Shown piece after piece: positions 1,316 to 44,768 of a DNA stretch of 64,000 nucleotides. Below the pieces are notes generated by a model that saw only the letters and a program-made list of their open reading frames with translations, did no database searches and had not been told where the DNA came from. How positions within the stretch are numbered: position 1 is the stretch's first letter; each line of letters begins with the position of its first letter. The position numbers were made by a program, and so were the translations under genes. Origin of the DNA: a virus; IMG/VR virus record IMGVR_UViG_3300045988_063132, positions 38,776 through 102,775 of that record. One strand, given 5' to 3'.

Positions 1316-1632
1316 GTGCCGACAAGTACTGTAAAGCTTATCAATTAATATTAGTGTCTTTACATTTGTAGAGACACTAATACTAGTTAGTGCCGAAAGT
1401 TATTAAACCGAATGGATTTAGTAGGTAATTAAGTTGAATTGACAACTTCCCTCAAGTGCTATATGCCGTAGGGTGGAAAAACAACGTGCCACTGATCATG
1501 TGCCGAAGATCATTACTATTGTTTTAGCTATTGTACTTTATGTCCTGCATAAAAACAATAGGCTCTACTTGTAGAGTTTTATAGTAATGGTTATCAAAAC
1601 ACATATAGAAATTGTGCTTTATGCCGAAGTTT
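1316..1632 (+). repeat. five dispersed copies of an RTGCCGAAG-like motif in an ORF-free region
   Basis: The copies are gtgccgacaag (1316), gtgccgaaag (1390), atgccgtaggg (1464), gtgccgaagat (1499) and atgccgaagt (1621). No ORF of 60 aa or more lies between 1300 and 2100. Confidence 0.45.
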
Positions 1633-2323: not shown

Positions 2324-2833
2324 TTAATTACCAGCTAGAGCGCCCAACCCTTCATTGGAAGGTGAAGAGATAGTCCAAGATTCACGAAACTTTTTAAGTT
2401 TCTCCTCAGAAATGAGGTTCCTATGAACCATTCTATGGCAATTAGGACATAAAGTTATTAAGTTTGTAATTTCATTTTTACCACCGTTAGATACAGGTAT
2501 AATATGATGAACATCACAAGAAGTTTTATTCCAACCGCATATTGCACAAGGTTGTAATAATAGAAAATTGTAAAACGATCTAGTAATAGTATTATTAGAT
2601 TTCATTCTTTTACGATAATCTTTTAATTTACAAGCATTTGTACAATACTTTGCTTTAGAAGATTGTGCTTCAAATTCCTGTTCACATACAATACATTTAC
2701 ATTTATATTTCTTTCTATGTAAATTTCTGTATTTAGCAGCACATGAAAGTGAACAAAATTTTGCATTTCCTCTGTTTACCTCTCGTAAATCAGCTTGGAA
2801 TTCATTATTACAATATAAACATTCTTTTTTCAT
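2324..2833 (-). CDS. HNH homing endonuclease with Cys-rich zinc-finger-like region
   Basis: The HNH motif HHIIPVSNGGKNEITNLITLCPNCH is present, with several CxxC pairs. The gene sits in a 1.9 kb otherwise non-coding stretch. Confidence 0.65.
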   Translation of the reverse strand: MKKECLYCNNEFQADLREVNRGNAKFCSLSCAAKYRNLHRKKYKCKCIVCEQEFEAQSSKAKYCTNACKLKDYRKRMKSNNTITRSFYNFLLLQPCAICGWNKTSCDVHHIIPVSNGGKNEITNLITLCPNCHRMVHRNLISEEKLKKFRESWTISSPSNEGLGALAGN

Positions 2834-3126: not shown

Positions 3127-3196
3127 TACTCTTTAGTTCAACAGGTTAGAATCGTAATTTTATTACAGAATGTGGGTTCGAGTCCCACAAGAGTAA
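3127..3196 (+). tRNA. tRNA-like element / probable degenerate tRNA (anticodon loop too short)
   Basis: The acceptor pairs tactctt with aagagta. U8 is present. The D-arm is gttc...gaat. The T-arm is gtggg-ttcgagt-cccac. The anticodon stem gtaat/attac leaves only a 3-nt loop. Total length is 70 nt. Confidence 0.3.
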
Positions 3197-3232
3197 CAAT
3201 TAACTTATGTTTAATTTCTTAAAAGTAATCAG

Positions 3233-13475: not shown

Positions 13476-13547
13476 AGCGGGATGGCGCAAAGGTAGCGCG
13501 TAGCTTTCACGAGGCTGAGGTTGGTAGTTCGAATCTATCTCCCGCAA
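13476..13547 (+). tRNA. tRNA, anticodon CAC (Val by anticodon), no encoded CCA
   Basis: A full cloverleaf was drawn by hand. The acceptor pairs agcggga with tcccgca (A1-A72 mismatch). U8 is present. The D-stem is gcgc/gcgc with loop aaaggta. The anticodon stem is tagct/ggctg with loop ttCACga. The T-arm is ggtag-ttcgaat-ctatc. Confidence 0.6.
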
Positions 13548-13565
13548 CTAATTAACCGTAGTACT

Positions 13566-30773: not shown

Positions 30774-33524
30774 TTAACTTTTAATACAATGATTCATTTC
30801 ATCAGTTGGAAATTCTTTAGAATCGTTAAACTCATTATTTGATTGATTCTTCGATTCTTCTTCTGGTTTCCTATGTTCTTCATTATCTTCAGTTACTTCA
30901 GTAGCTTCAACGTTTGTAACATCAAACGGATTGTCAATAGGAACAAACATTTCATTTTGTAAGAATTTAGGTTCAAATTCAATAGAAAGATCTGTAGCAT
31001 CTATCCTCTGATTACCATCAATAAAAGAAGTAGTAGTACCTTCATTAATGGTAAAACCTCTTTCCTTGAAGTTGATGGAATTGGTTGCAGCATATACAGG
31101 ATAATAATCTGTTTCATTTTGAAGTCTACCAACAAGTTTGAAAAGAGTATTGTTATACTGTAAATAAGGAACTGGTAAACCTGTAGTGGTATTATAGTCT
31201 CCTTGTTCTGTAGTAATGTACACTGTTTGACCTTCATGTAATTGCTGTCTGTTTGGTGTAGCAGATTGTACTATATCTTCTACGCCTTGTAAAGCTCTAA
31301 ATGCATAATCCACATATTTATTAAAATCTAAAGAGTTATCGTTAGAACGTTTTAACAAGTCTTTCAGATGTTGATTGTAAGTATAATCTACACCATCCAC
31401 AGTATAAGATAAATTACCCAGTACTTCAAAAGGTACTAAATCTAAAGTAGCATAAATACCTGTACCTCTACCACCACTAGTATAGAAGGAGTATATAATT
31501 AAATCTTTTGCAATATTTCTAACTTCTTCTGAACTATGTTCTAATAGATCTCTCCAAGCATAAGTGTATGCGTTCTTTGCATCTGTATCTCTTAATTTCA
31601 ATACTGTTTCAAATTTTTTAGGTTTACCTTCTACATTTATGCCAGGTATAAGCATCTTCAGTAACATGTTGTCGCTTAATTCTAGATACCTAGTACCAGT
31701 TAATATTTGATTTCTAAGTCTATCTACTCTGTCTACAATAGTGTTATTACCATAGAACATGTCTTTCAAATTTATATTGTTTTGCTTACAGTATTCATTA
31801 AAAAATTCCGCCTGCATCGCAAACTTCATTTCTGACATATACTTGGTTATATTGTTTGATTTTCTATCATAATAAGTATTCGATAATTCACCAAACTTAT
31901 TGACCATTTTTAAGAAACCTGGACTGAACTCTATCATTTCATTCTTAAGTAAGTCGAATAATAGACCTGTACTATTGTTTAGTTTTCTGCCTAAGAATGT
32001 TTTATTATACACATCTTCAGCATTAGTAAAATGAGGATCATCCATCATCCTTTCAATGTTATGTAAAGACAGTATCAATTCAGCTTGATTTTTACCCATT
32101 TTACCGGTATCCACCTGAGAAGCCAACACCATGTTACTTAATGCCTTACTATAGTTCTGAATATCTGTAAAATATTCATATATAATCACTTGATTTCTAT
32201 ACCAATCTGTAGAGAAGTTTTTATTATAATGATCTCTCAATTGTTCTTTTAACCATTCAGCATTAAATACTAAATCTTTTACATTGTAAGTATTACCATT
32301 CCATTCTATAGTAAGAGTTCCATCATCTAAACGACTGTAGAAATTCTTTTTATCAAGCTTGGCTGCTTTTTCGTATTTGTTTAATATAGAATCCTTCCAT
32401 CGTTTATCATTTCGCTCTTTCTTAGTAAGACCCATCTTTGATGAACCTCTTCTAATGGACTCATTTGCAATCTCTTTCAATACCGGTTGAGGTAAAAAGT
32501 AAAATTGATTCAAACCAACACCAGAGGAAGTTAATAAAGCTACTACATCATAAGTATACGAGTTTACATTTAAACGAGTAATATAAGAGTCTTTTGCAGC
32601 ATCTACGTGGGCATTGATCAATGCAGAAGTCCAATCCATGATGGAGATACCATTAGCATCAAATTTATCATACAAATTACCTATATTTGGTATAATACTA
32701 AAAAGATTTCTCTTTGTATTGACCTTGCCTCTTCTTCTAGATATTTCTATAGTTTTATCAAGATCCAATTTTGCGATTTGCATAATTACACGGAAGGTAT
32801 TAATCAAAGCCATAGGTCCAATACCAGCGTCTGCACCAACGTTTTGTGTTTTAACGTTTTCTTGATATAAAGGGAATAATGGTTCAAGATTGTTATAATT
32901 CTTATTGATATTAGAATAAGAATCAACCACTTTTACAGCTTCTTTTAATGCGTCTGTAGCAAAGTCCAAAGGTACTGTTGCATCCATATAATGATTTGAA
33001 GAAGTTAAAGTCGTTTGGAATACTTCTAGCAATCTATTTTCAATCTGTCTGTGATCATTTAATTGCCATTTATTTTTACCAGAATTCTCTTGCACAAATT
33101 CTTCAAAAGTCATTTTTCTATCTTCGAACTTGAAAGATGATGCTAATTTAAGAATCTTTTTATTAGGAGCTAATTCTGGATCTCTTAAAATTTGATTAAA
33201 CTTTCTTTGACCTATAAAGATTGAATATTTATTTTTCATACTCTTGAGTATATTAATAGAATCTTCAGTTAATTCTCCATTTCTATTAATATCCACCAGT
33301 ACAGATTGTAATATTTTAGGTATTTCTACTTTTGCTTGTTTGTAGAAATCTGTATTAAACCAACGATATCTATGATCGTATACTTTTTTCAAGTATTCTT
33401 CTTCGTTCAAATAAATCGGATTACCTAATTCATCTAATCCTACATAATCATCAATGAATTCTGTCTTATATAATTTACCACCTATTACATCATAATTATA
33501 TCTAGCTAGATACATTTTATCAAC
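30774..33524 (-). CDS. giant multisubunit-RNAP-like protein, exon 2 (begins VDKMY...)
   Basis: The frame is open upstream of the annotated Met. The predicted 3' splice site after omega-G (plus 33525) yields D-F-D|V-D-K-M. Compare the beta-prime NADFDGDQM motif. Confidence 0.6.
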   Translation of the reverse strand, partial: VDKMYLARYNYDVIGGKLYKTEFIDDYVGLDELGNPIYLNEEEYLKKVYDHRYRWFNTDFYKQAKVEIPKILQSVLVDINRNGELTEDSINILKSMKNKYSIFIGQRKFNQILRDPELAPNKKILKLASSFKFEDRKMTFEEFVQENSGKNKWQLNDHRQIENRLLEVFQTTLTSSNHYMDATVPLDFATDALKEAVKVVDSYSNINKNYNNLEPLFPLYQENVKTQNVGADAGIGPMALINTFRVIMQIAKLDLDKTIEISRRRGKVNTKRNLFSIIPNIGNLYDKFDANGISIMDWTSALINAHVDAAKDSYITRLNVNSYTYDVVALLTSSGVGLNQFYFLPQPVLKEIANESIRRGSSKMGLTKKERNDKRWKDSILNKYEKAAKLDKKNFYSRLDDGTLTIEWNGNTYNVKDLVFNAEWLKEQLRDHYNKNFSTDWYRNQVIIYEYFTDIQNYSKALSNMVLASQVDTGKMGKNQAELILSLHNIERMMDDPHFTNAEDVYNKTFLGRKLNNSTGLLFDLLKNEMIEFSPGFLKMVNKFGELSNTYYDRKSNNITKYMSEMKFAMQAEFFNEYCKQNNINLKDMFYGNNTIVDRVDRLRNQILTGTRYLELSDNMLLKMLIPGINVEGKPKKFETVLKLRDTDAKNAYTYAWRDLLEHSSEEVRNIAKDLIIYSFYTSGGRGTGIYATLDLVPFEVLGNLSYTVDGVDYTYNQHLKDLLKRSNDNSLDFNKYVDYAFRALQGVEDIVQSATPNRQQLHEGQTVYITTEQGDYNTTTGLPVPYLQYNNTLFKLVGRLQNETDYYPVYAATNSINFKERGFTINEGTTTSFIDGNQRIDATDLSIEFEPKFLQNEMFVPIDNPFDVTNVEATEVTEDNEEHRKPEEESKNQSNNEFNDSKEFPTDEMNHCIKS

Positions 33525-34427
33525 CGCTACTACCTTATATCTCTATAAGGGCTAGACTATATCTTCACCTTACGGTGCTCCCCATTTCGCCTTTCGGCTA
33601 CACAGCGTGTGTACGCTGACTCAAATCATATTGAATTTTATGAATCATTGAAGGAACCTGTTCAACAAATGGTTTTACAATGTTTATAAACTTTATTCCT
33701 TCTTTTGTTCCACAGCATAAAGAATAACTGTTTTCTTTTTTGCCTTCGTGAAACATATAAAAATCAATATTCCAAACTTCTTTAAAGTAATCTATTATTA
33801 TTTGTAATTCTTCTTTTGGCATACAAGTTGCAATTTTTATATAGAAACCATGAACTTTACCATTAGTTGTTCTATAATTTATATGTCCATCATCCATATA
33901 CCAAATTGCAATTCCTTTAGCATCAAGTCTATTTAACAATTTTCTATTACCTATTTTTTTATAAGGTTTGTAAAAAACTCTTCTTAAGACCTTTACAAAA
34001 GGTATAATATTTAATTGTGTGTAATAAACTGTTTTACCAGTATTATAACCTTTAACACTGACGTATTCTTTTAAACCGTTGTTTCGTAAACCTGCTTCTT
34101 TAAGTTGTTCTATTTTCCACTCAAGATAATCGCGTTGTTCTTCACAATGACTTAATTTAAATACGTTGTTATTACTTATTGTTCCATCACCAAGTAAAAG
34201 AGCTATTAATAAATTTCTAGATTCTTTAGTTATTTTTGTTTTCATATTTGCTATCCATTTAGGAAGCTTCAGTTGAGTATTAGTCGTTGAACCTTCCGAT
34301 TAGTTATATAGATAACGATCGGCTTGGCTGCTGGTTGCCCAATCCTTTGGGTTTTTACTACGCTTAGTACCTTAGGCTCTAAGGGGTTTCCAGCAATTAA
34401 AGGAGTTTTACTTCAACTATGTTGTTA
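33525..34427 (-). mobile_element. group I intron (903 nt) carrying a LAGLIDADG homing endonuclease in P8
   Basis: P1 pairs exon CUUCGAU with intron GUUGAAG, giving a U-G. P10 pairs intron CAAC with exon-2 GUUG. The P element aattgctggaaac and Q element aaccagcagcc are present. The R element ggttcaacgactaatac is at plus 34278-34294. The S element gaagatatagtctagccc is at plus 33549-33566. The intron ends in G. Confidence 0.75.
33598..34245 (-). CDS. LAGLIDADG homing endonuclease (intron-encoded)
   Basis: Two LAGLIDADG motifs are present: LIALLLGDGTIS and IAIWYMDDGHIN. Confidence 0.75.
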   Translation of the reverse strand: MKTKITKESRNLLIALLLGDGTISNNNVFKLSHCEEQRDYLEWKIEQLKEAGLRNNGLKEYVSVKGYNTGKTVYYTQLNIIPFVKVLRRVFYKPYKKIGNRKLLNRLDAKGIAIWYMDDGHINYRTTNGKVHGFYIKIATCMPKEELQIIIDYFKEVWNIDFYMFHEGKKENSYSLCCGTKEGIKFINIVKPFVEQVPSMIHKIQYDLSQRTHAV

Positions 34428-37400
34428 ATCGAAGTCCGCACCGGTTAACTTAGTTAATTCGGCAGGTAATACGATAGTATCCCCAACATTCGATGGCAAT
34501 ACGTCTACTATAGTAATAGGTAATGTAGAGTTCATACCCTGAGTAGGAATACGATAAGACAGAACTGCTAAATCCTGATTATCTAAGATGAATTTTTTAG
34601 CCTCTTCAAAGTAAGAAGTGTTATTCTTTTTTGCTTGTTCTAATAAATAATCTTTTGGCAGTACATCTTTGAATAGATTTATAGATACAATTGCTTGTAA
34701 TCTATTATTTTCATCCTTAAATCGAAGTTCTTTATTGAATTTATATTCATATTTGCTAGCGTCTACTTCAGCAAAAGAATCTTTGTAAGCAAAGTTAGAC
34801 ATCTGAATCATGGAACCACCAGGAGTATTTATATCTATGGTTTCTTTCTTAATCATAGATATGATACGACTTTGAATCCAGGCTAATGCAGGTATACCAG
34901 ATAATTCAATATAGTAATCTTTGTTACCATCTTCATTTTCAATGGTTTTTAAAACATCAATAAGATTTGATGGTAAGTTACTATTTATGGCATCATCCTT
35001 TAACATTTGAACAAACTTGTCACGATTAACGGTCATATAGGTTTTACCATTCTCTGTTATTTCGCTTATCCCAAACTGTTCATATATGTTATTTCTACCA
35101 ATATCTGATAAAGCTGAAATAGCTCCTACGTAGTCATCAATTAATTGCTTACCAGAATATTTTACGCCTTCGTATTCATACACATCATTGTCTTCTACTC
35201 CAGCAACACCAATTTTAGCCATCTGAGTACCTAACGAGATTCTAGATACATGGTGAGGATCTGTTACCAACTGTTTACCTAAATACTTGAATGATTGTTC
35301 ATATACAGGAATTTCTTGTAATTCTGTATTAGGTTTACCATCTACATAGAATGTACCTTTTTGTCTTAAACCTGATTTTACAGAAGTATCAAATTTAATC
35401 ATGTCTACATCTTTATCATTCATTAAATCATATACTTTCTGTAAGTCTCTACCTTTTGCTACTCTTTTGAATACAGTAGCCAATGACATCTTATCGTAGA
35501 TGGGTATCTGTAATCCATTAATGAAATCATAACCAAAATGTATGTATTTCAATGGTTGCATTACTACAGAATAAGCATACAATTCATCTTCTAATGATAA
35601 AGGCTCATCTGATTCCATTAAATTATAAGCTTCTTCTTTTTCTCCATTCCACTCACCATTCATGATGGCAAGTTTTCTAAACATCTTTGGGCTAATAAGT
35701 ACCTGCGCATCTGTTTGGTCAGTTTCAAGATAACCATTTAAACGTTTATCAGCTTCTTTAACCACCTCTTCTTTCAATTGTTCATCAGTCATATCAGCAA
35801 ATCTACCAACACGTCTTTCTCTGAACATCTCAAACTGTTTCCAAAGTAAACCATGATTGTCATCAGTACCTACGTACTTCGACATCATTTCATTATACAT
35901 TACTCTGGATTCTACAATGTTTGAATTGAAAATAGCAGTTTTATACTTGTGCGTATCAAAGTCTAAGAATCCTTCTGGCCAATTTTCACGTAATACAGAT
36001 TTTGTTGAAGTTAATGCAGAATAACGTTTTACTCTATCATCCAACATTGCCTGATAGTCTTTACTACCTTTATAAAACGCAACATCCCCTGATACAAGTT
36101 TTTCAAATTCATACACAGCGATTGCTGAATTTATAGCATAATCTGCAATAGCTTCTGCTAAATCAATTTTTTCATTAACCTTTTGTTTTACAATAGATGC
36201 TGGTAAAAGTCTATTACTAAATATAAGATTTGTATTTATCCTTTTACTGTCGTTTTCTTTTATAAACTCATCATCCAGATACTTTTCGTTACCGTTTATC
36301 AATTTCTGATTAATAAACTGTTTTATAGTGTTGTTAACTTGTTGAATAAGACTCTCTTCAATTACTTTTCTAAGACCTTTACTATTAATATCAAAGAATT
36401 TATCATCTGATAATTTATTTTGTAAAGATGAGAAATATCTGAATTTGTAACCATTACCTGTTAAACGCATTGCACCACCTTTAACAATGTAATGGTAGTT
36501 TTCAACAAGTTCTTTATAATTCGTATCTTTCTCTTTCATTAAAGAATCCTGTTCAACTTTTGACATCTTGTTCCAAGATTCTTCAGAAACACCAAGTCTA
36601 TTTAAGAAGTTATTCTTAGCATTTATTGCAGCTTGAATTGTAGAGTATTCATTGATAGCATAATTTACAAATAAATCAATAGTTTCTTTATTCAAAGAAC
36701 CATTTTGAATAGTAACCTCTTGACGATTCAAACCTGTTATAAAATAGAATGTACGTTTGTTTGCAAGAGTTGGTAAAGGTAAACGATTGTTTCTTACAGC
36801 ATTGAATTTAAGTAATAAGTCTTCATTTGGTGCTATATCCAAATACCCACGTCCTGTATCATAGCCATCTTTATCAATCATAGATAGCATTGTATCAACG
36901 TGAACATTAGATCTTACTTTGGGATCAGTCATCTGTTGCAACCAAAATGAAGATTTATTATAAGTTACACCATTTATCTGAGTAAAGAAGCTATCGTCTT
37001 TTAACCATTCTTCAAACATAGAAGTAATGGTGTTATTTTCACTATACGCATAAACCAAGTTGCCATCTGGTCCTAACACACTATCATCTTCCGCTGTAGG
37101 ATTTGCAGCAACATATGCTTTTGCCAATTCTGCTACCGATTTTTCTTTGCTTAGTAAATTTAAAGCATGACTAGTTACATCTTCTATTTTGTCGTTAACC
37201 AAATTGTAAAACAAACCTTGTTCTCCAAATAATTGGTCTAATCCTACAGGATCTTTAGAACCAACTCTAGGTACACCATTTATAAGATTTTTTAAAGCAA
37301 CGTTTAGATTGCTATTAAAATAATGATTATTTAATAAAACACCGATCGCATCACCATCTACAGCAATGTTCACATTGTTAAGTATGCGGACTAATTCTAG

Positions 37401-40400
37401 TACATTCTCGGCATAATCGTTTTTAAGGAAATTGTGCTTTTTAGATTTATTTTTTAACTCTTTATAATCTGCAATAGCTTGTTGTAAAACATTCTTATTT
37501 GCAAATGTACCATTTACACCGAATGTTGCTGACCAGTTCTGTTCAAGTCTATTAGAACGTTTATTAACATCAGCGTCACCATAAGTAATAGTATAAGAAG
37601 TTAGCTCTTTACCTTTATCATTGGTATCCTTACCAAAGTAAGCGTTAATAAATCTATTTCTGTGTTTTTTAAACGTATTCCAGAATCTTGTTTTCAACAT
37701 TTCATCCTCGTTACCACTTTCATCCTTAGTGGTAAGGATTTCATACAATTCTGAATACATATTTATCTTACTAGAATCTCCTTTGGCTTGTCTGATAGTA
37801 CTGGTTTCATCTGCTTTTTTCTTCAACAGCTCCAACATTTCATCTATAGACTTTGCATTGTGAATTGTACTAAAGGCATTAAACCAAGCTACATCGGGAT
37901 TTATATATACAGGAAGGAATGTTTCTGGATCTAATGTTTCAGAATCTTTTAATGTTAAAAACATTACTCTAATATCCGCTTGCGCATTTTCTTTTGCTGA
38001 AAATTCATAAGCGGATCTTATTTCATCATTAACTAAGTCATTTAGATCATCTTTTTCCTCTAGTTTAGATTCTACTCTACGTATATTAAATCCTTGCAAC
38101 TTAACATCAATAAGAGGTCTAAACACTGTATCAAAGTTATCAAGTATTTCATTATAAAGATCTACCTTTTCTTCGTAGATAGCTCTTTCTAATTCACCAA
38201 ACGCTTCGTTTTGTGAGGCTGCTAAATGCTTATCTCTGATGTCAATTAGTTGATCTTTTACTGCCTTAAAACTTAATCCTCTCTCTAAACTTTCTATATT
38301 CTGTATACCATTAACATCTATGGTCATAGAAGTTAAAGTACTAACAATATTTCCAAGTAAAGAGCTATTGTAAATTTGATGCAATGTGACTCCATTAACA
38401 GTAAGAGGTGCATCCGCATTTGCATATCTTTGATTAAAATTAGTTAATGCCGCTTTGTTAATCTTAGCAAATTTATATTTACCGTTTTTAATAGCATTAA
38501 AAAATCCATCAATATTATCTATTTTGGTTTTGTTTAAACCTAAGAATGATTTAATAAAGTTTTTAATATCTGAAATAACTCTACCTAACTTACTGTGGGA
38601 ATCGGGAGTATTATTGATAACATCTTCTCGGAAACGTTCAGCTAAAAATTCTTCCACTTCATTATCGTTACGATTAAATAGTGAATATTCTTTTCTAGCT
38701 AAATTGTACATTCTGGCTTGTTCTTCCGGACTCAACAATAATAATGATACTCTATGAAAAGCTTCATGATAAGCAGCACCAGCCGCTGGACGTTCAAACA
38801 AGGTTACACCATCCTCATTCATTATTGACCATGCCCAACCAGGTCTACCAGATTCTCCAATTATACGAATTAATTGATCTACCAATTTAATATTACCACC
38901 AGCTCTTTTACCAAGCATTCTACGATAATTTAATAATTCTTTTTCTAAATCAGAAGTTTGTTTAACATTATCATAAACCTGCATTGATACAGAAGGTTTC
39001 TTACCAAAAGTAGTAAACTTATTTTTTGGTTTTTTTCTAGTAAAACCAATCATTTCATCAGTAATACCGGCAGCTTTATTTAACTCTCTTGGATCTAATG
39101 GAGCGTTGGTAACAGGAGCTTCTTTTACTGGAGATTCTTTGATTTTTCTTTCTCTTAATTTAAGAGTACCTTTACGTATGTCATTATAAATTTCAAAATT
39201 AGGTATAGAATCTGAAATTTGATCATTCATTCTAGATAAGAAATCAATCATCTCATCAGAATCCATTTGATCAAAATTGTTTCTATAGTCATTTACCAAA
39301 TTTTGGTATTCGGCTGCGTCTTTTACATACGCTCCTAATTTAAACGGAGATGTTTCCTTAGTAATCTCAACAAGAGGTTTTTCAGTATCCGTTGCTTTCT
39401 CATCTACTTTTTCTGGCACAGTTTTTACTGGAGAAATTTGTTGAGATGCTTCTACTGGAATTACTTTACCTAAATTTAAAAGTATTCTACTTACCGTATT
39501 CCCATCTGGGAAAGTATAATCCAATAAATTTGATAACTCTTCTTTTGTTATATTCGCACTAGGTATTGCTTTACGTTTTGTCAACAATGATCTAACAGCA
39601 CTATCATACATCAATTTGCTAGATAATGTTGATAAATTATTTATAAGTCTATCATAAACCTCACGTAATTTTTTCACCTCTTCCGTTTGCTCAATGGAAT
39701 CAAAAGGATTATTAGTAAGCAAACCAAAAGTATTTGTATTTTTTGGTTCAGGTTTAGCTGTTTCTTTTCTTTTAGACTCTGCAGAAGGTTTTACAGTTTT
39801 TGGTGGAGCAATTGTAGCCTTTTTAATAGCTTCATAGTACTTGGGATTTTCAATTTGTTTATTTTGTTTGTTGACTGTAACAGTTTTTTGTGTATAAATC
39901 TTTAAACCTGTTTTATCAACAGTAACCAATTTACCCTCATCTTTTACTTTTTCCTGAGCTTCTGGATGTTCACTTTCATATTTTATAAGATCATCTATAC
40001 TCTTGTTATACACATCTACAAGGGCTTTTCTTATATTCTGTGAAAGTTCTTCTTCATTTAACCCTTCAATATTTAACAGTTCTTCTCCTTTTAAGGAAAC
40101 CAATTTAGTTCCTTGTTTTACTAAAGCTGCTTTATTTGCATACTTTTGAGCACCCGGAATTTTTGCAGTTATAGTACTACCGTCTGGTAAATTGTTTATC
40201 TTTTCAGATAAATTTTCTACACTTTTAAATACGATTTCCTCTTTTTCAAAGACTTCAGAAGTTTTCTCTTCCTTCGGAGAAGGAACACTATCTGTAGTAA
40301 TAACTCTCTCGGTTATAGGAATGTTTTGTACTACCAAATAAGATTTTGAAATTAAACCTTTAGATATATCTAAATCAGTACTTAAAAAATCATTATCAAT

Positions 40401-43400
40401 GATTGCATTTAAATATCTAGCACCACTTTTAAAATCAATAGTCTTATTACCAGCTTTAATTTTAAAGCCGTATTTAACCGGCATGTCATTGTTTAACATC
40501 GCTCTAGAAATAGCAAAGTTCTTATTTACAGACATCCATTTGGCAAATTTTGCAATAGAATCTTCATCATTTGGTCTCAGCGCTTCGTGTTTTGCACCAA
40601 ATCGTACTATATTACTATTGTTTGTATCAAAGTAAAGTATCTTACTAGGTTCACGCTTAGAATTTACTGTAGATTCCCCAAAGTAAACCAAACTATTTAA
40701 GAACTGAGCGTAAGTGAGGTACCCAACATTAACCGGTTCAATTCCATAAGTATTATCAGCAGGTATAGCATCCTTTAATCTAATTTTTCTAGAAGATAAA
40801 TCAGCAAATACCCTAGCAATAGATGTAGCTAATTCCAAAGGTATTTTATTGGGATTAAGTTTTGCAACATAACCCTCTTCACCAGTAAGTTGATATTTAC
40901 CAGGTATTATTAAATAAGGAGAACCTGGAGTACCTGTAGCATTTGCTGTAAGTAAATATTCTGACTCTCTAGAAGGATCTATATAGAAAATAGAATTGGT
41001 TGCATCTGCTATACCTATTCTCATGGGAGTACCATTAGGAAATACATATTCCCCATCCTTATTCAATTTGAGATCCAAACCCTTTACTAAAGTATTAGAA
41101 GTATTAGGTTGATAATTATTATAACCCGGAGTACGTACAATATTACCTGCTGGCACTTTTACGTTACCTTTATTTTTAAGCAGTTCTAGTACTAACTTTG
41201 TTTTTTCTTTACTTGCGTTTGAAAATGCAAACACTTTATTAGAATAACCTTTATTAGTAATAATGCCTTGTATAGGTAAATATTGAATTAACTCATTTCT
41301 TTCTACTTCAGATAAATTGTCCAAAGCTTCAATAGGATTAGATGATTTTAACAGAGTTAAATACTTCTTTTTTGCAGCCTTTTCTTTAGCGTATCCTGAT
41401 AAATTTTCAATATTATCACTTATAGTAAAGTCAATAGCAAATTTACTAACATCTGTACTAGGATTATTGATTATAGCATTGAATTTATCATCAGATGCAA
41501 GTCTTACTCCCTCTTTGTAGGTATCGTCTTTTGCATAATCCTTTGCTAATTTTGACTTAGGATTGGTAATTTCATAATCTTCATTTTGACCCTCTTTTAG
41601 ATTTAGTTCTTGTCTTGGAGAAGTATCTTCTAAAAGTTTATTTTGTTCTGCAGCCAATTGTGCTAAACTTATTGTGCCACCAGATTTGGATTCAATGTTA
41701 TAGTTTAACAATTCCCCTTGACCAACTTCAATAGGCTTACCATCTTTATCATTTAAAGTATAAACAAAACCATACTTCTCTGATTTCTTAGTAGCTTTTT
41801 TATCTATTGTAAACTCTTTACCATCTTTTGAGATAACCTTATCATTTACATTACTAAAGTCAGCATCTACAGGATTGGGAATACTTTTTGCAATTTCTTC
41901 GTCTTCCTTAGTCTTTTTATCTCTCAGATAATTAATTTCGAAGTCTTTATTATCTATTAAATTTTTTATATTACTTCGTTCTTCCTTCGCCGATACTGGT
42001 AATTTGTTTAAATCTCTTATTAATTGCTTTTTCTGTGCTTCAGCGATTTCTAATTGAGATCCTGTATCACCTTCTTTTGCAGAAGTATAAAGACGTAAAG
42101 TATCTTCAGATGTATTTGGATCATTTATAACGGAATCTAAAGACGTTTTATAATCATCACTACTGAAATAATCTTCTACAGCTTTGGTTTTCTTTTCTAT
42201 CGCTGCTAATTTGTCTTCTATTGCTTTTATTGATGAATAGACTTTTTCTGTTTGAAATCGTTTGTCATACAAACCTTTTACATAATCTTTGTCTGTAGTA
42301 AGATCTTTCAATCTTTTTATATCTACTACTTCATCAATTGCATTATTTGCTAATTGTGCTTGTTTTATTGCATAATCATGTATGTTTGTTATCTGAGAAT
42401 TACGATTTTCAAAATTAACTGCATGTTTTATTACAAAATTCCTAGCGTCTTCTATTGCCTTTTTTAGTTCATTTTCATCTGCAGCCTTTCTTATAGCATC
42501 ATACTTTTCATTAAGCGTATCTGTATATTTTACATTACTAGTAAAATTTTCTTCTACAGCTTGTTTTAAATCATTATTATTAGACAATAATGAATTTATT
42601 TCACCATTTAGTTTTCTATTTCTAAGATTGTTGATTTGTCTATTTGCATCTATTGTGTAGATACTATTCTCAATATCTTGTCTAGTTTGTAACCAAGCTC
42701 TTCTTTGTTCCTCAGATTCAAACTTTTTAGGTTTGGGTAAAATTTTATTTATTTTATCCTTTGCATCTTTTTTAGAAGATGCGATAATGTCAGCTTCTTC
42801 AGTTCTACCTGATTCTCTAAGAGCTCTTTCAAATCTATCTACAGTACTAATTTCAGCTACTTTATTATTTACTGTAACTACTCTAGAAGAATTATTTAAA
42901 ATGTCTACAAATTGCTTATAATCATCTTCTAAGCCATTTTTAGTATTTTGTATATAATCATCTTGATTTCTAAGCTGTTTTAATACCGCTTCAGATATTT
43001 CCATTTGATTCTTAGGATCATATGAGGCTACTCTAGCAAATAAATCTTTATTATCTGTGTACAAAGTATTTAATACTTCAGCTCTAGATTTAATACCGTC
43101 ATACTGTTGTTGAGTTATAGCCCCTTTAGTAAGAGCCATATTCATACCAGCCATCAAAGATTCATATTCTCCAGAAGCAATAAAAGGAACAATAGATCTA
43201 TCTTCTTTTACTTTGGAATGTACAAATCCCCCAAGTAAACCAGCAATAGCACCCGCTGCTCCTTCTTCCAAAGCCGATTTAAAAGATTCCTTGCTAAATA
43301 ATTCTGTGCCGAACTTACCTTTACCTATTTCTACATCCTCCGGAGCAATAAACTGATCATATAATACTTCAATAGAATTTTTAGCTTCAGATTGAAGAAA

Positions 43401-44768
43401 TTCTTCTAAGCCTTCTTCAAAAGCGCTACCTACTCCAATTTTATTAGTAGCGGTAAATCTATCTACGGCATTAACTATGTTATTAATAATTCTATTTGAT
43501 ATGCCTCTATCAAACAATTTTGACATATCTCCGCCAGTTTCATTTACTACAGCTTGTGCTGCCATTTTTCCAGATTTTCCTGTAGCCAACCATCTTGTCA
43601 AAGCGTTTGAACCAAGTTTTTGTTCAATGACTGTATTAATAGCACCAGTAAGTAAACCAACAGATGCTGCATCTTCTAAACTAAGACCAGCATCTCTAGC
43701 AGCTTGATAAGCTTCACCGTAATTTAACACCATACCAGCACCAACCATTGGTAATACTGTAGGAGCGCTTTTGATTGCTTCATTGAGTGTTTTACCTATA
43801 GTACCCAAAGTTTCTACTTCTTTGCCTGTAGCAGCTAAACCACCAATAAGACTACCAACTCCGGTGTTAGCTATTGCTCTACCTACTCCGGCATAGGAAA
43901 CCAAGGAAGACATAACATTACCCATAACATTACTAAAGCTTTCCAAATTATCAAACATACTTTGATCAGCTTCTACGCTAGTCTTACCGTAAGGGGTATC
44001 TCTGGTTATTTCTTCTTGTCGATAATCTGCTAACGCATTTAAACTATCGTATTCTGATTTATAACCTTCACCTTTAGCTAAACTAGAAACAGCTTCTGCA
44101 ATATCTCCTGCCCCAGCAGCAAAACTGTAAATGCCAGGAAGAATACCATGTAACCCTCTTGCAAAGCTCTCGGTAAATCCCAGTAATGCGTTACTTGTTA
44201 ATTTTTTAGGTCCGTAGGAATTAATAATTGAAGTACCTGCTAATTCTACTTTCGCCATAGATTCTTTTGTACCAACTACTTGTTTTAAAGTATATTTTCC
44301 TGTTTCAGGATCAATAGCTGGAGTAAAATAACTAAATAGTTTAAAACTATCAGGTCTGCTTTCTTTTTCCTTCAGTCCTTTTAATACTTCATCAGTTTTA
44401 CCTTTCATAACTTTTAAAAAGTTATTTCTAGTATTGCCTTCTGTACCTTCTGCAAAATCTTCAATATCCATTGAATCTTCTTCAGATAAATATCCTAAAG
44501 ATTTCCTAAGTAGTGTGTTACCCAGGAAATCTTCATCTAAATTCAATTCTGATAGACTTTGCTTTTCGCCACCTAATTCATCAGCAGCTATATATTCATC
44601 ATTCATAATGGAGTTTACCAATGCCACGGATTCTATTTCCTCATTGGCCAATCCTTCATTAAAATTGTTATTTATAATGTTAGGAACAGTATAATAAGAA
44701 TTATAAGTATTTCTTAATACTTCTAATCCGTTTGGTTTGTTGCTAACTGTATCAAAACGTGGAAACAT
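34428..44768 (-). CDS. giant multisubunit-RNAP-like protein, exon 1 (3447 aa; ends ...LTGADFD)
   Basis: The C-terminal ...VLPAELTKLTGADFD resembles the beta-prime ...AAYNADFDGD motif. An HExxH motif (YHEAFHRV) also occurs. Exons 1 and 2 together would encode about 4363 aa. Confidence 0.6.

Follow-up and report, generated by a model that had tools for sequence, protein, structure and literature searches.

A mobile group I intron with a LAGLIDADG endonuclease gene, predicted to be spliced from the catalytic motif of the virion RNA polymerase gene in a crAss-like phage

How may a phage obtain an active RNA polymerase from a gene that stops inside its own catalytic motif? The question is raised by a locus of the IMG/VR virus record IMGVR_UViG_3300045988_063132. 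The DNA analysed, hereafter called the window, is the whole stretch from position 38,776 to position 102,775 of that record, 64,000 nucleotides (nt) in length. A minus-strand open reading frame (ORF) of 3447 codons, 44768..34425, has the C-terminus ...LTKLTGADFD, followed by TAA. From 33524 the same strand encodes VDKMYLARYNY... in a frame open to 30774, and excision of the 903 nt in between yields a single frame of 4363 codons, ...GADFD^VDKMY... (the caret marks here and below the junction or the insertion point). With a probability of about 0.92, the minus-strand segment 34427..33525 represents a mobile group I intron hosting a LAGLIDADG ORF, located in the DFDVD motif of a virion RNA polymerase and removed by splicing. 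Boundaries of the element, ribozyme core and its covariation, endonuclease family, host gene and motif, polymorphism and horizontal spread are demonstrated from sequence. The parts of the gene are the following, gp66 being the virion RNA polymerase of Cellulophaga phage phi14:2 (structure 6VR4) and cr1_1 an intron-less relative.

34428..44768, minus strand: exon 1 of the polymerase gene, 3447 codons long and ending ...LTGADFD; aligns with 6VR4 gp66; contiguous with exon 2 in cr1_1; its final base, U34428, is the 5' splice-site U
33525..34427, minus strand: group I intron, 903 nt; starts with UAA, an in-frame stop, and ends with omega-G at 33525; corresponds to the segment missing from intron-less alleles
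30774..33524, minus strand: exon 2 of the polymerase gene, 916 codons and a stop; opens with VDKMY and holds the third catalytic aspartate (Asp); aligns with gp66

A first-pass annotation of the window had described the long ORF ending LTGADFD plus stop and, downstream on the same strand, the 903-nt segment ending in G, and both are found as described. It had also predicted that splicing joins ADFD to VDKMY and so recreates a beta-prime-like motif. The junction stands, being part of the 4363-codon frame; the motif rebuilt there is DFDVD, of the crAss type (DFDxD, the fourth residue being V or I), and differs from the cellular DFDGD. The predicted sequence of the joined exons across the 903-nt gap is ...GACUUCGAU^GUUGAUAAAAUG. 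The sole solved structure matched by a 1200-residue stretch of the fused protein is 6VR4 gp66 (E-value 3e-45). The alignment to 6VR4_A, of the kind proposed earlier as a check, runs straight through the junction (LTKLTGADFDVDKMYLARYNYDV versus IPTKTGSDFDIDKMYVMLPNFKV; core GADFDVDKMY versus GSDFDIDKMY). Judged from it, the insertion point separates the codons of the second Asp and of Val in the DFDVD motif of a crAss-like (Culoivirus-like) virion RNA polymerase. The catalytic motif of gp66 is 1361-DFDID-1365, and RNA synthesis is abolished when any single Asp is replaced. As had been anticipated, the third Asp is lost without splicing: exon 1 alone stops after the second one, and the ATG-initiated product of exon 2 (from 33515) does not include the third. 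Since each Asp of the motif is essential in gp66, an active enzyme requires ligation of the exons.

The limits of the insert are set by alleles lacking it. In a blastn search of a phage collection, a query of 2 kilobases (kb) matched cr1_1 and cr55_1 (Crassvirales, Suoliviridae, Culoivirus) at 95% identity, in two pieces that abut in the record and total 1098 nt, i.e. 2001 minus 903. Both phages have an uninterrupted coding sequence (CDS) of 4551 codons, reading GGTGCGGACTTCGAC^GTTGATAAAATG at the junction. The junction is GGTGCGGACTTCGAC^GTTGATAAAATGTAT in cr1_1 and ...GGACTTCGAT(903 nt)GTTGATAAAATGTAT in the window (...TTCGAT(903 nt)GTTGAT...). Three IMG/VR contigs are also without insert, and the 135 residues that they encode around the junction are 100% identical to those of the window. 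Apart from the 903 nt, the genes of these five relatives are 95-98% identical to the window gene. The predicted splice boundaries are thereby fixed to the nucleotide by the intron-less alleles. Window and cr1_1 are 97.9% identical over 6 kb, and the presence/absence polymorphism therefore lies inside one species-level group. The junction codon is GAC in all five intron-less relatives and GAT in the window; the intron-bearing allele thus provides at position -1 the U required for group I splicing.

These alleles bear directly on a different explanation, according to which the gene is truly split, a free-standing endonuclease gene lies between the halves, nothing is spliced, and two polypeptides assemble as in the split beta' of jumbo phages. 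GenBank annotation agrees with it, three separate CDSs being given in bajarodcaudo virus 1, cr116_1 and cr131_1, and an ATG is found 9 nt into exon 2 (ORF 33515..30774). The split would however fall inside a five-residue metal-binding motif, depriving the ATG-initiated product of its third, essential Asp. Near-identical phages have a single uninterrupted gene, and the two ORFs are separated by a covarying group I core with a guide tracking the exon. A split gene is accordingly regarded as highly unlikely.

Assignment of the insert to group I introns is based on a model search and on comparison of relatives. When a 1.4-kb region was searched with the Rfam model RF00028 and permissive filters, both halves of the intron were matched, 34465-34184 at 43.0 bits (E-value 2.8e-9) and 33730-33533 at 42.6 bits (E-value 3.6e-9). 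Relatives were gathered by searching IMG/VR with the endonuclease protein, which gave about 45 crAss-like contigs, and three GenBank records with the same type of insert (bajarodcaudo virus 1, cr116_1, cr131_1) were added; L-numbers denote the IMG/VR and GenBank loci carrying related introns. Splice sites were assigned in the relatives by a U at -1, a guide starting with G and a restored D-x-D-x-D peptide. For covariation analysis, 27 distinct sequences were aligned after removal of the ORF. A structure drawn on the window sequence (P1, P3, P4, P5, P6, P6a, P7, P8, P9) was then counted on this alignment. Standard pairs are formed in 93.5% of the cells, versus 27-43% when partners are slid by 1-3 columns. 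Both sides have changed in 27 of 45 pairs, and none of 500 shuffles reached the observed covariation. RNAalifold, with no structure supplied, recovers P3, P4, P5, P6, P6a, P8 and P9. An ORF-less intron in the terL gene of Bacillus phage AR9, a CDS recorded as a join of five pieces, shares about 76% identity with the 5' half of the window intron and itself scores 70.6 bits. The AR9 gene (L164, KU878088, 796-2141) hosts four ORF-less group I introns, scoring 70.6-92.7 bits, in about 1.35 kb, and one of these is the closest non-crAss relative of the window ribozyme.

The elements identified in the intron are listed in 5' to 3' order on the minus strand (bp, base pairs).

34428..34435, minus strand: P1, exon strand ACUUCGAU; pairs with 34417-34410 over 8 bp, with U34428.G34417 at the splice site
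34421..34424, minus strand: candidate P10, intron strand CAAC; complementary to GUUG 33524-33521, 4 bp; moderate support from the family
34410..34417, minus strand: P1, internal guide sequence GUUGAAGU; covariation with the exon seen in about 40 relatives
34400..34405, minus strand: P3, 5' strand CUCCUU; pairs with GGGGAG 33583-33578; 97.5% paired, double changes at 5 of 6 pairs
34328..34396, minus strand: P4 (UUGCUGG/CCAGCAG, the P and Q elements), enclosing P5 and a P5 extension of about 45 nt; supported by RF00028, covariation and RNAalifold
34292..34327, minus strand: P6, P6a and P6b; RF00028; P6a pairs covary 4/4
34280..34292, minus strand: R element GUUCAACGACUAA, including the P7 5' strand GACUA (34285-34281); invariant in 27/27 relatives
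34273..34278, minus strand: 5' strand ACUCAA of a long-range stem closing the ORF loop (P7.1-like, provisional); pairs with UUGAGU 33624-33619
33598..34245, minus strand: homing endonuclease ORF, 648 nt, 215 residues, two LAGLIDADG motifs (PF03161), stop UAG
33619..33624, minus strand: 3' strand UUGAGU of the ORF-closing stem, within the D-L-S codons of the endonuclease
33603..33618, minus strand: hairpin CAGCG-UACACA-CGCUG in the last endonuclease codons; conserved, with compensating stem changes in relatives (seen by eye, uncounted)
33589..33598, minus strand: P7.2-like hairpin GCCGAAAGGC, beginning at the G of the stop codon; variants GCUGAAAAGC, CACGAAAGUG and GGAUAAUAAUCC in relatives
33578..33583, minus strand: P3, 3' strand GGGGAG, downstream of the ORF; covariation
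33566..33577, minus strand: P8 hairpin CACC-GUAA-GGUG; 100% paired, 4/4 pairs covary
33555..33565, minus strand: S element AAGAUAUAGUC, made of J8/7 and the P7 3' strand UAGUC; invariant; RF00028
33533..33550, minus strand: P9 hairpin CCUUAUA-GAGA-UAUAAGG, 7 bp with a GNRA loop, followed by UAGUAGC and omega-G

The features put forward by the first-pass annotation are all found in the sequence, at the coordinates given, and its reading of them as a group I intron is supported. The P, Q, R and S core is matched by RF00028 in both halves, and the core helices other than the invariant P7 covary in the 27 relatives. The LAGLIDADG ORF (34245..33598) does sit between R (34292-34280) and S (33565-33555). 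P1, with the expected U-G at the 5' splice site, extends over 8 bp (ACUUCGAU/GUUGAAGU). The guide tracks the exon in every relative, through 5-13 bp which each time begin with U.G. P3 is found in compensatory variants such as CUGUG/CACAG, AUGUG/CACAU and UCGUG/CACGA. P2 is absent from the window intron. The distance from P9 to omega-G33525, immediately before exon 2, is eight nt, and the position of this G is set by the intron-less allele and by the reading frame. Two placements made by Rfam were rejected. P3' was put by the model at AAAUGGA, upstream of the ORF, while covariation puts it at GGGGAG after the ORF; with an intron end at G33533 the reading frame would run into UAG, and such an end is at odds with the intron-less allele.

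Since the P3' strand is downstream of the ORF, the latter sits between the P7 5' strand and P3'. In subgroup IA introns P7.1 and P7.2 are located in this interval. The stem closing the ORF loop varies in compensatory fashion (GCUCAA/UUGAGC, ACUUAA/UUAAGU, GCUUAA/UUAAGC). Its mean length is 7.1 bp with own partners versus 5.8 bp with crossed ones, a weak control as the sequences are alike, and the argument for the stem is therefore taken from four compensatory variants. Alignment columns are out of register at this stem, endonuclease C-termini differing in length between relatives. The last endonuclease codons (D-L-S-Q-R..., 33603-33624, minus strand) also form RNA structure, and constraints on protein and on RNA thus overlap there.

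The endonuclease matches PF03161 (LAGLIDADG_2) at residues 12-185, with 78.2 bits versus a cut-off of 25 (E-value 8.9e-22), and is a distant, weak match of I-SceI (E-value 0.006). Its motifs are LLIALLLGDG (residues 12-21) and IAIWYMDDG (residues 112-120), and the acidic residue is kept in both. Its ATG lies 182 nt into the insert. The candidate cleavage target is GGTGCGGACTTCGAC^GTTGATAAAATG in cr1_1, where the sequence across it is GGTGCGGACTTCGACGTTGATAAAATG. A homologous endonuclease ORF with in-frame TAG codons is found at about 3062-3790 of L004 (cr131_1, NC_055902), and suggests reassignment of TAG in the cr131_1 phage.

An intein, or another device acting at the protein level or by recoding (read-through, frameshift), might be thought of as well, as crAss-like phages of the same group carry inteins and reassign stop codons, and the cr131_1 endonuclease ORF is itself interrupted by TAG. 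In the exon frame, however, the window insert is closed, beginning with TAA, and the endonuclease has its own ATG. No Hint domain was found in a Pfam scan. The tRNAs of the 64,000-nt window are one tRNA-Lys and one tRNA-Val, and no suppressor tRNA is among them. The RNA core explains the insert fully, and the probability of a protein-level device is close to nil.

The group I element has plainly travelled. The window intron is 93% identical to those of L005 and L006 and 89% identical to that of L007, while the flanking 900-nt exons of L005-L007 are only about 57-60% identical to the window exons. Intron identity being far above exon identity, the element has moved between distant crAss-like phages. 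Traces of its arrival may be visible upstream, where divergence from cr1_1 is 9.6% in the 250 nt directly adjacent to the intron and 4.4% in the next 250 nt (34428-34930), over a background of about 0-2%. The pattern resembles a co-conversion tract, perhaps from an unsampled donor, and is suggestive.

Some observations count against the mobile, spliced intron proposed here. Patches located further off also diverge by 4-6.6% from cr1_1, which weakens the co-conversion signal, and a donor allele was not found, exons at other intron-bearing loci being about 45-60% identical. The search of the window with the Rfam group I model, recommended by the first-pass annotation, succeeded in part: the halves match at E-values of about 3e-9 under permissive filters, as reported above, but each alone is below the gathering score of 50 bits, and a default run of RF00028 on the whole window at that score reports nothing at this locus. 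This is because the 648-nt ORF cuts the model in two, in addition to the effect of speed filters. P7 (GACUA/UAGUC) is invariant in the 27 relatives, so that covariation is uninformative and neither supports nor contradicts this helix. Of the P10 pairing CAAC/GUUG proposed earlier, both strands are present, yet 4 bp are near chance for a 10-nt loop (shuffled mean 3.6), and P10 is absent in L041, a relative with the same L1 loop. Across the family, own pairs average 5.1 bp versus 3.8 for crossed pairs and 3.6 for shuffled loops, and several relatives reach 7-8 bp; P10 thus appears real for the family and weak in the window copy. The intron, with its P2 missing and its ORF in this interval, is probably IA-like, a label derived from the reading of the P7.1/P7.2 region and from general definitions of the subgroup. 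Finally, splicing itself and the exact junction are inferred.

The last points leave room for an intron that is of group I by descent and no longer splices, its polymerase gene being dead in a defective phage or in a decaying element. The short P10 fits such a condition, and the genome and its intron are known as sequence. Against decay, all core helices are intact in the window copy (P1 8/8, P3 6/6, P4 7/7, P7 5/5). The endonuclease ORF has its full length and keeps the acidic residues of both motifs, and the exons are open and encode around the junction a protein 100% identical to that of intron-less relatives. A dead intron is thus deemed very unlikely.

If the intron is active, events would plausibly unfold as follows. 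The polymerase gene would be transcribed as a single precursor, in which P1 would arise by pairing of the guide GUUGAAGU with the end of exon 1, ACUUCGAU, a U.G pair marking the splice site. A free guanosine held by P7 would attack after U34428, the freed exon 1 would attack after omega-G33525, and ligation of the exons would give a messenger RNA of 4363 codons with an intact DFDVD site. The UAA made by the first three intron bases would halt ribosomes on unspliced RNA. The 215-residue LAGLIDADG protein would cut intron-less alleles in co-infecting phages, and the intron would spread (homing) as the cut is repaired from the copy that bears it. The same protein may also aid RNA folding as a maturase.

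Related introns, all encoding endonucleases of the same family, occupy four staggered positions in the DFDxD codons, within 9 nt.

After the first Asp (GSD^FDID): L004, L007-L011, L021, L024, L027, L035, L036, L038, L040
After Phe (GSDF^DID): L030, L031, L034, L037
After the second Asp (GSDFD^xD): window, L002, L003, L005, L006, L012-L020, L028, L032, L041, L045, L048
After the fourth residue (DFDI^DK): L046

The guide fits in each case its own exon end (GUUCGAACC for GGUUCGGAU, GGAGUC for GACUUU, GAUGUC for GACAUU). In L007-L011, inserted 6 nt upstream of the position used in the window, core and endonuclease are about 89% identical to those of the window intron, and P1/L1 and P9 ends are of the type found in L004, after the first Asp. 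This points to L007-L011 being mosaics, formed by exchange of modules between introns. The codon of the first Asp is GAC in 75 and GAT in 4 of 79 intron-less alleles; introns located after the first Asp all follow GAT, a regularity to be read with the caution that the splice-site search demanded U at -1. Related group I introns are also found at neighbouring sites in ribosomal DNA (rDNA), for example a few nt apart in the small-subunit gene, with a guide matched to each site. Unlike these, the four sites described here are packed into 9 nt of codons for a catalytic motif, and one endonuclease family is common to all copies. It is conceivable, though doubtful, that one lineage of intron plus endonuclease hopped repeatedly among four adjacent phosphodiester bonds, with its guides rebuilt, as a contest between co-infecting gut phages and not through neutral slips.

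It is a classic finding that group I introns encoding homing endonucleases interrupt essential phage genes at conserved catalytic sequences (PMC12908238). The window intron belongs to the same ribozyme family (RF00028) as those of T4 td, nrdB and nrdD, of the SPO1 and Bastille DNA polymerase genes, of Twort and of AR9 terL. It shares with them an ORF looped out of a peripheral element, a site at a conserved catalytic sequence, and presence/absence polymorphism between close relatives. It differs in the host gene, here a single-chain two-barrel virion RNA polymerase of a crAss-like phage infecting Bacteroidota, and in an ORF lodged in the P7.1/P7.2-like region, the last codons of which double as ribozyme helices. 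Phage introns more often carry GIY-YIG or HNH enzymes, whereas the window endonuclease is of the LAGLIDADG type.

The nearest functional parallel is provided by PhiPA3. As summarised in a review, an intron in a virion RNA polymerase subunit gene gives this phage a competitive edge, its endonuclease attacking the intron-less PhiKZ gene (PMC12908238). Both loci feature a mobile group I intron with an endonuclease in a phage virion RNA polymerase gene, and relatives carrying the intron-less target allele. In the window, however, the polymerase is one giant chain and not a multisubunit enzyme, and the demonstrated competitive effect is that of PhiPA3. The PhiPA3 endonuclease very probably belongs to a different family.

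In crAss-like phages, numerous introns and inteins, found in the groups Delta and Zeta and including group I introns in core genes, are reported in the covered portion of Yutin et al. 2021 (PMC7886860). Within the block of transcription genes, the legend to its Fig. 3 marks an 'intron-encoded endonuclease maturase' of LAGLIDADG type, and disruptions within the DxDxD motif are left unexplained there for the Zeta group (PMC7886860). Those introns are from the same phage order and the same group (Delta/Suoliviridae) as the window intron. As far as that portion goes, they were recognised from endonuclease domains alone, splice sites in the polymerase gene and RNA structure are not given, and the genome bearing the Fig. 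3 LAGLIDADG is not named in the supplement (PMC7886860). In the literature, which was covered partially, no description was found of splice sites, RNA structure or staggered sites, and no paper joining 'DFDGD', phage and group I intron. The element is of a textbook selfish type, and this locus is newly mapped.

Other RNA elements are found elsewhere in the window. A second group I intron, ORF-less, spans 2152-2396 on the plus strand (RF00028, 63 bits versus a gathering score of 50, E-value 1.3e-13); it was found with permissive filters only, the default run having missed it. Opposite its 3' part, and overlapping it, runs a 169-residue HNH-type ORF (minus strand, 2833..2324). A RAGATH-22 RNA is located at 1319-1498 (plus strand; 125.6 bits versus a gathering score of 120.3), and a RAGATH-20 match below threshold (1431-1511, plus strand; 55 bits versus 101) overlaps its 3' part. 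The two tRNA genes are tRNA-Lys(UUU) at 3127-3197 and tRNA-Val(CAC) at 13476-13548, both on the plus strand.

In L002, L003 and L004 (PQ006092, MT774389, NC_055902) the polymerase is recorded as separate 'hypothetical protein' CDSs flanking an 'endonuclease' or 'hypothetical' CDS, and the intron is unannotated. The mapped splice sites allow many such records of crAss-like phages, polymerase 'hypothetical proteins' plus 'endonuclease', to be joined into one gene. Part of the puzzle of DxDxD disruption in crAss-like phages would thereby be resolved in ordinary terms, at least for the records from Suoliviridae and Steigviridae covered here. Four staggered sites with matched guides record re-targeting of the ribozyme, and LAGLIDADG enzymes of approximately known target can be drawn from the endonuclease family. 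Should the contest between gut phages be real, each occupied site would destroy the shared endonuclease target, and the endonuclease would be a weapon against intron-less competitors, as that of PhiPA3 against PhiKZ. Coexisting, near-identical phages with and without the intron offer a natural system for homing and for competition between phages in the gut. If the proposed splicing is true, the most abundant phages of the human gut would need RNA self-splicing to produce the enzyme that starts infection.

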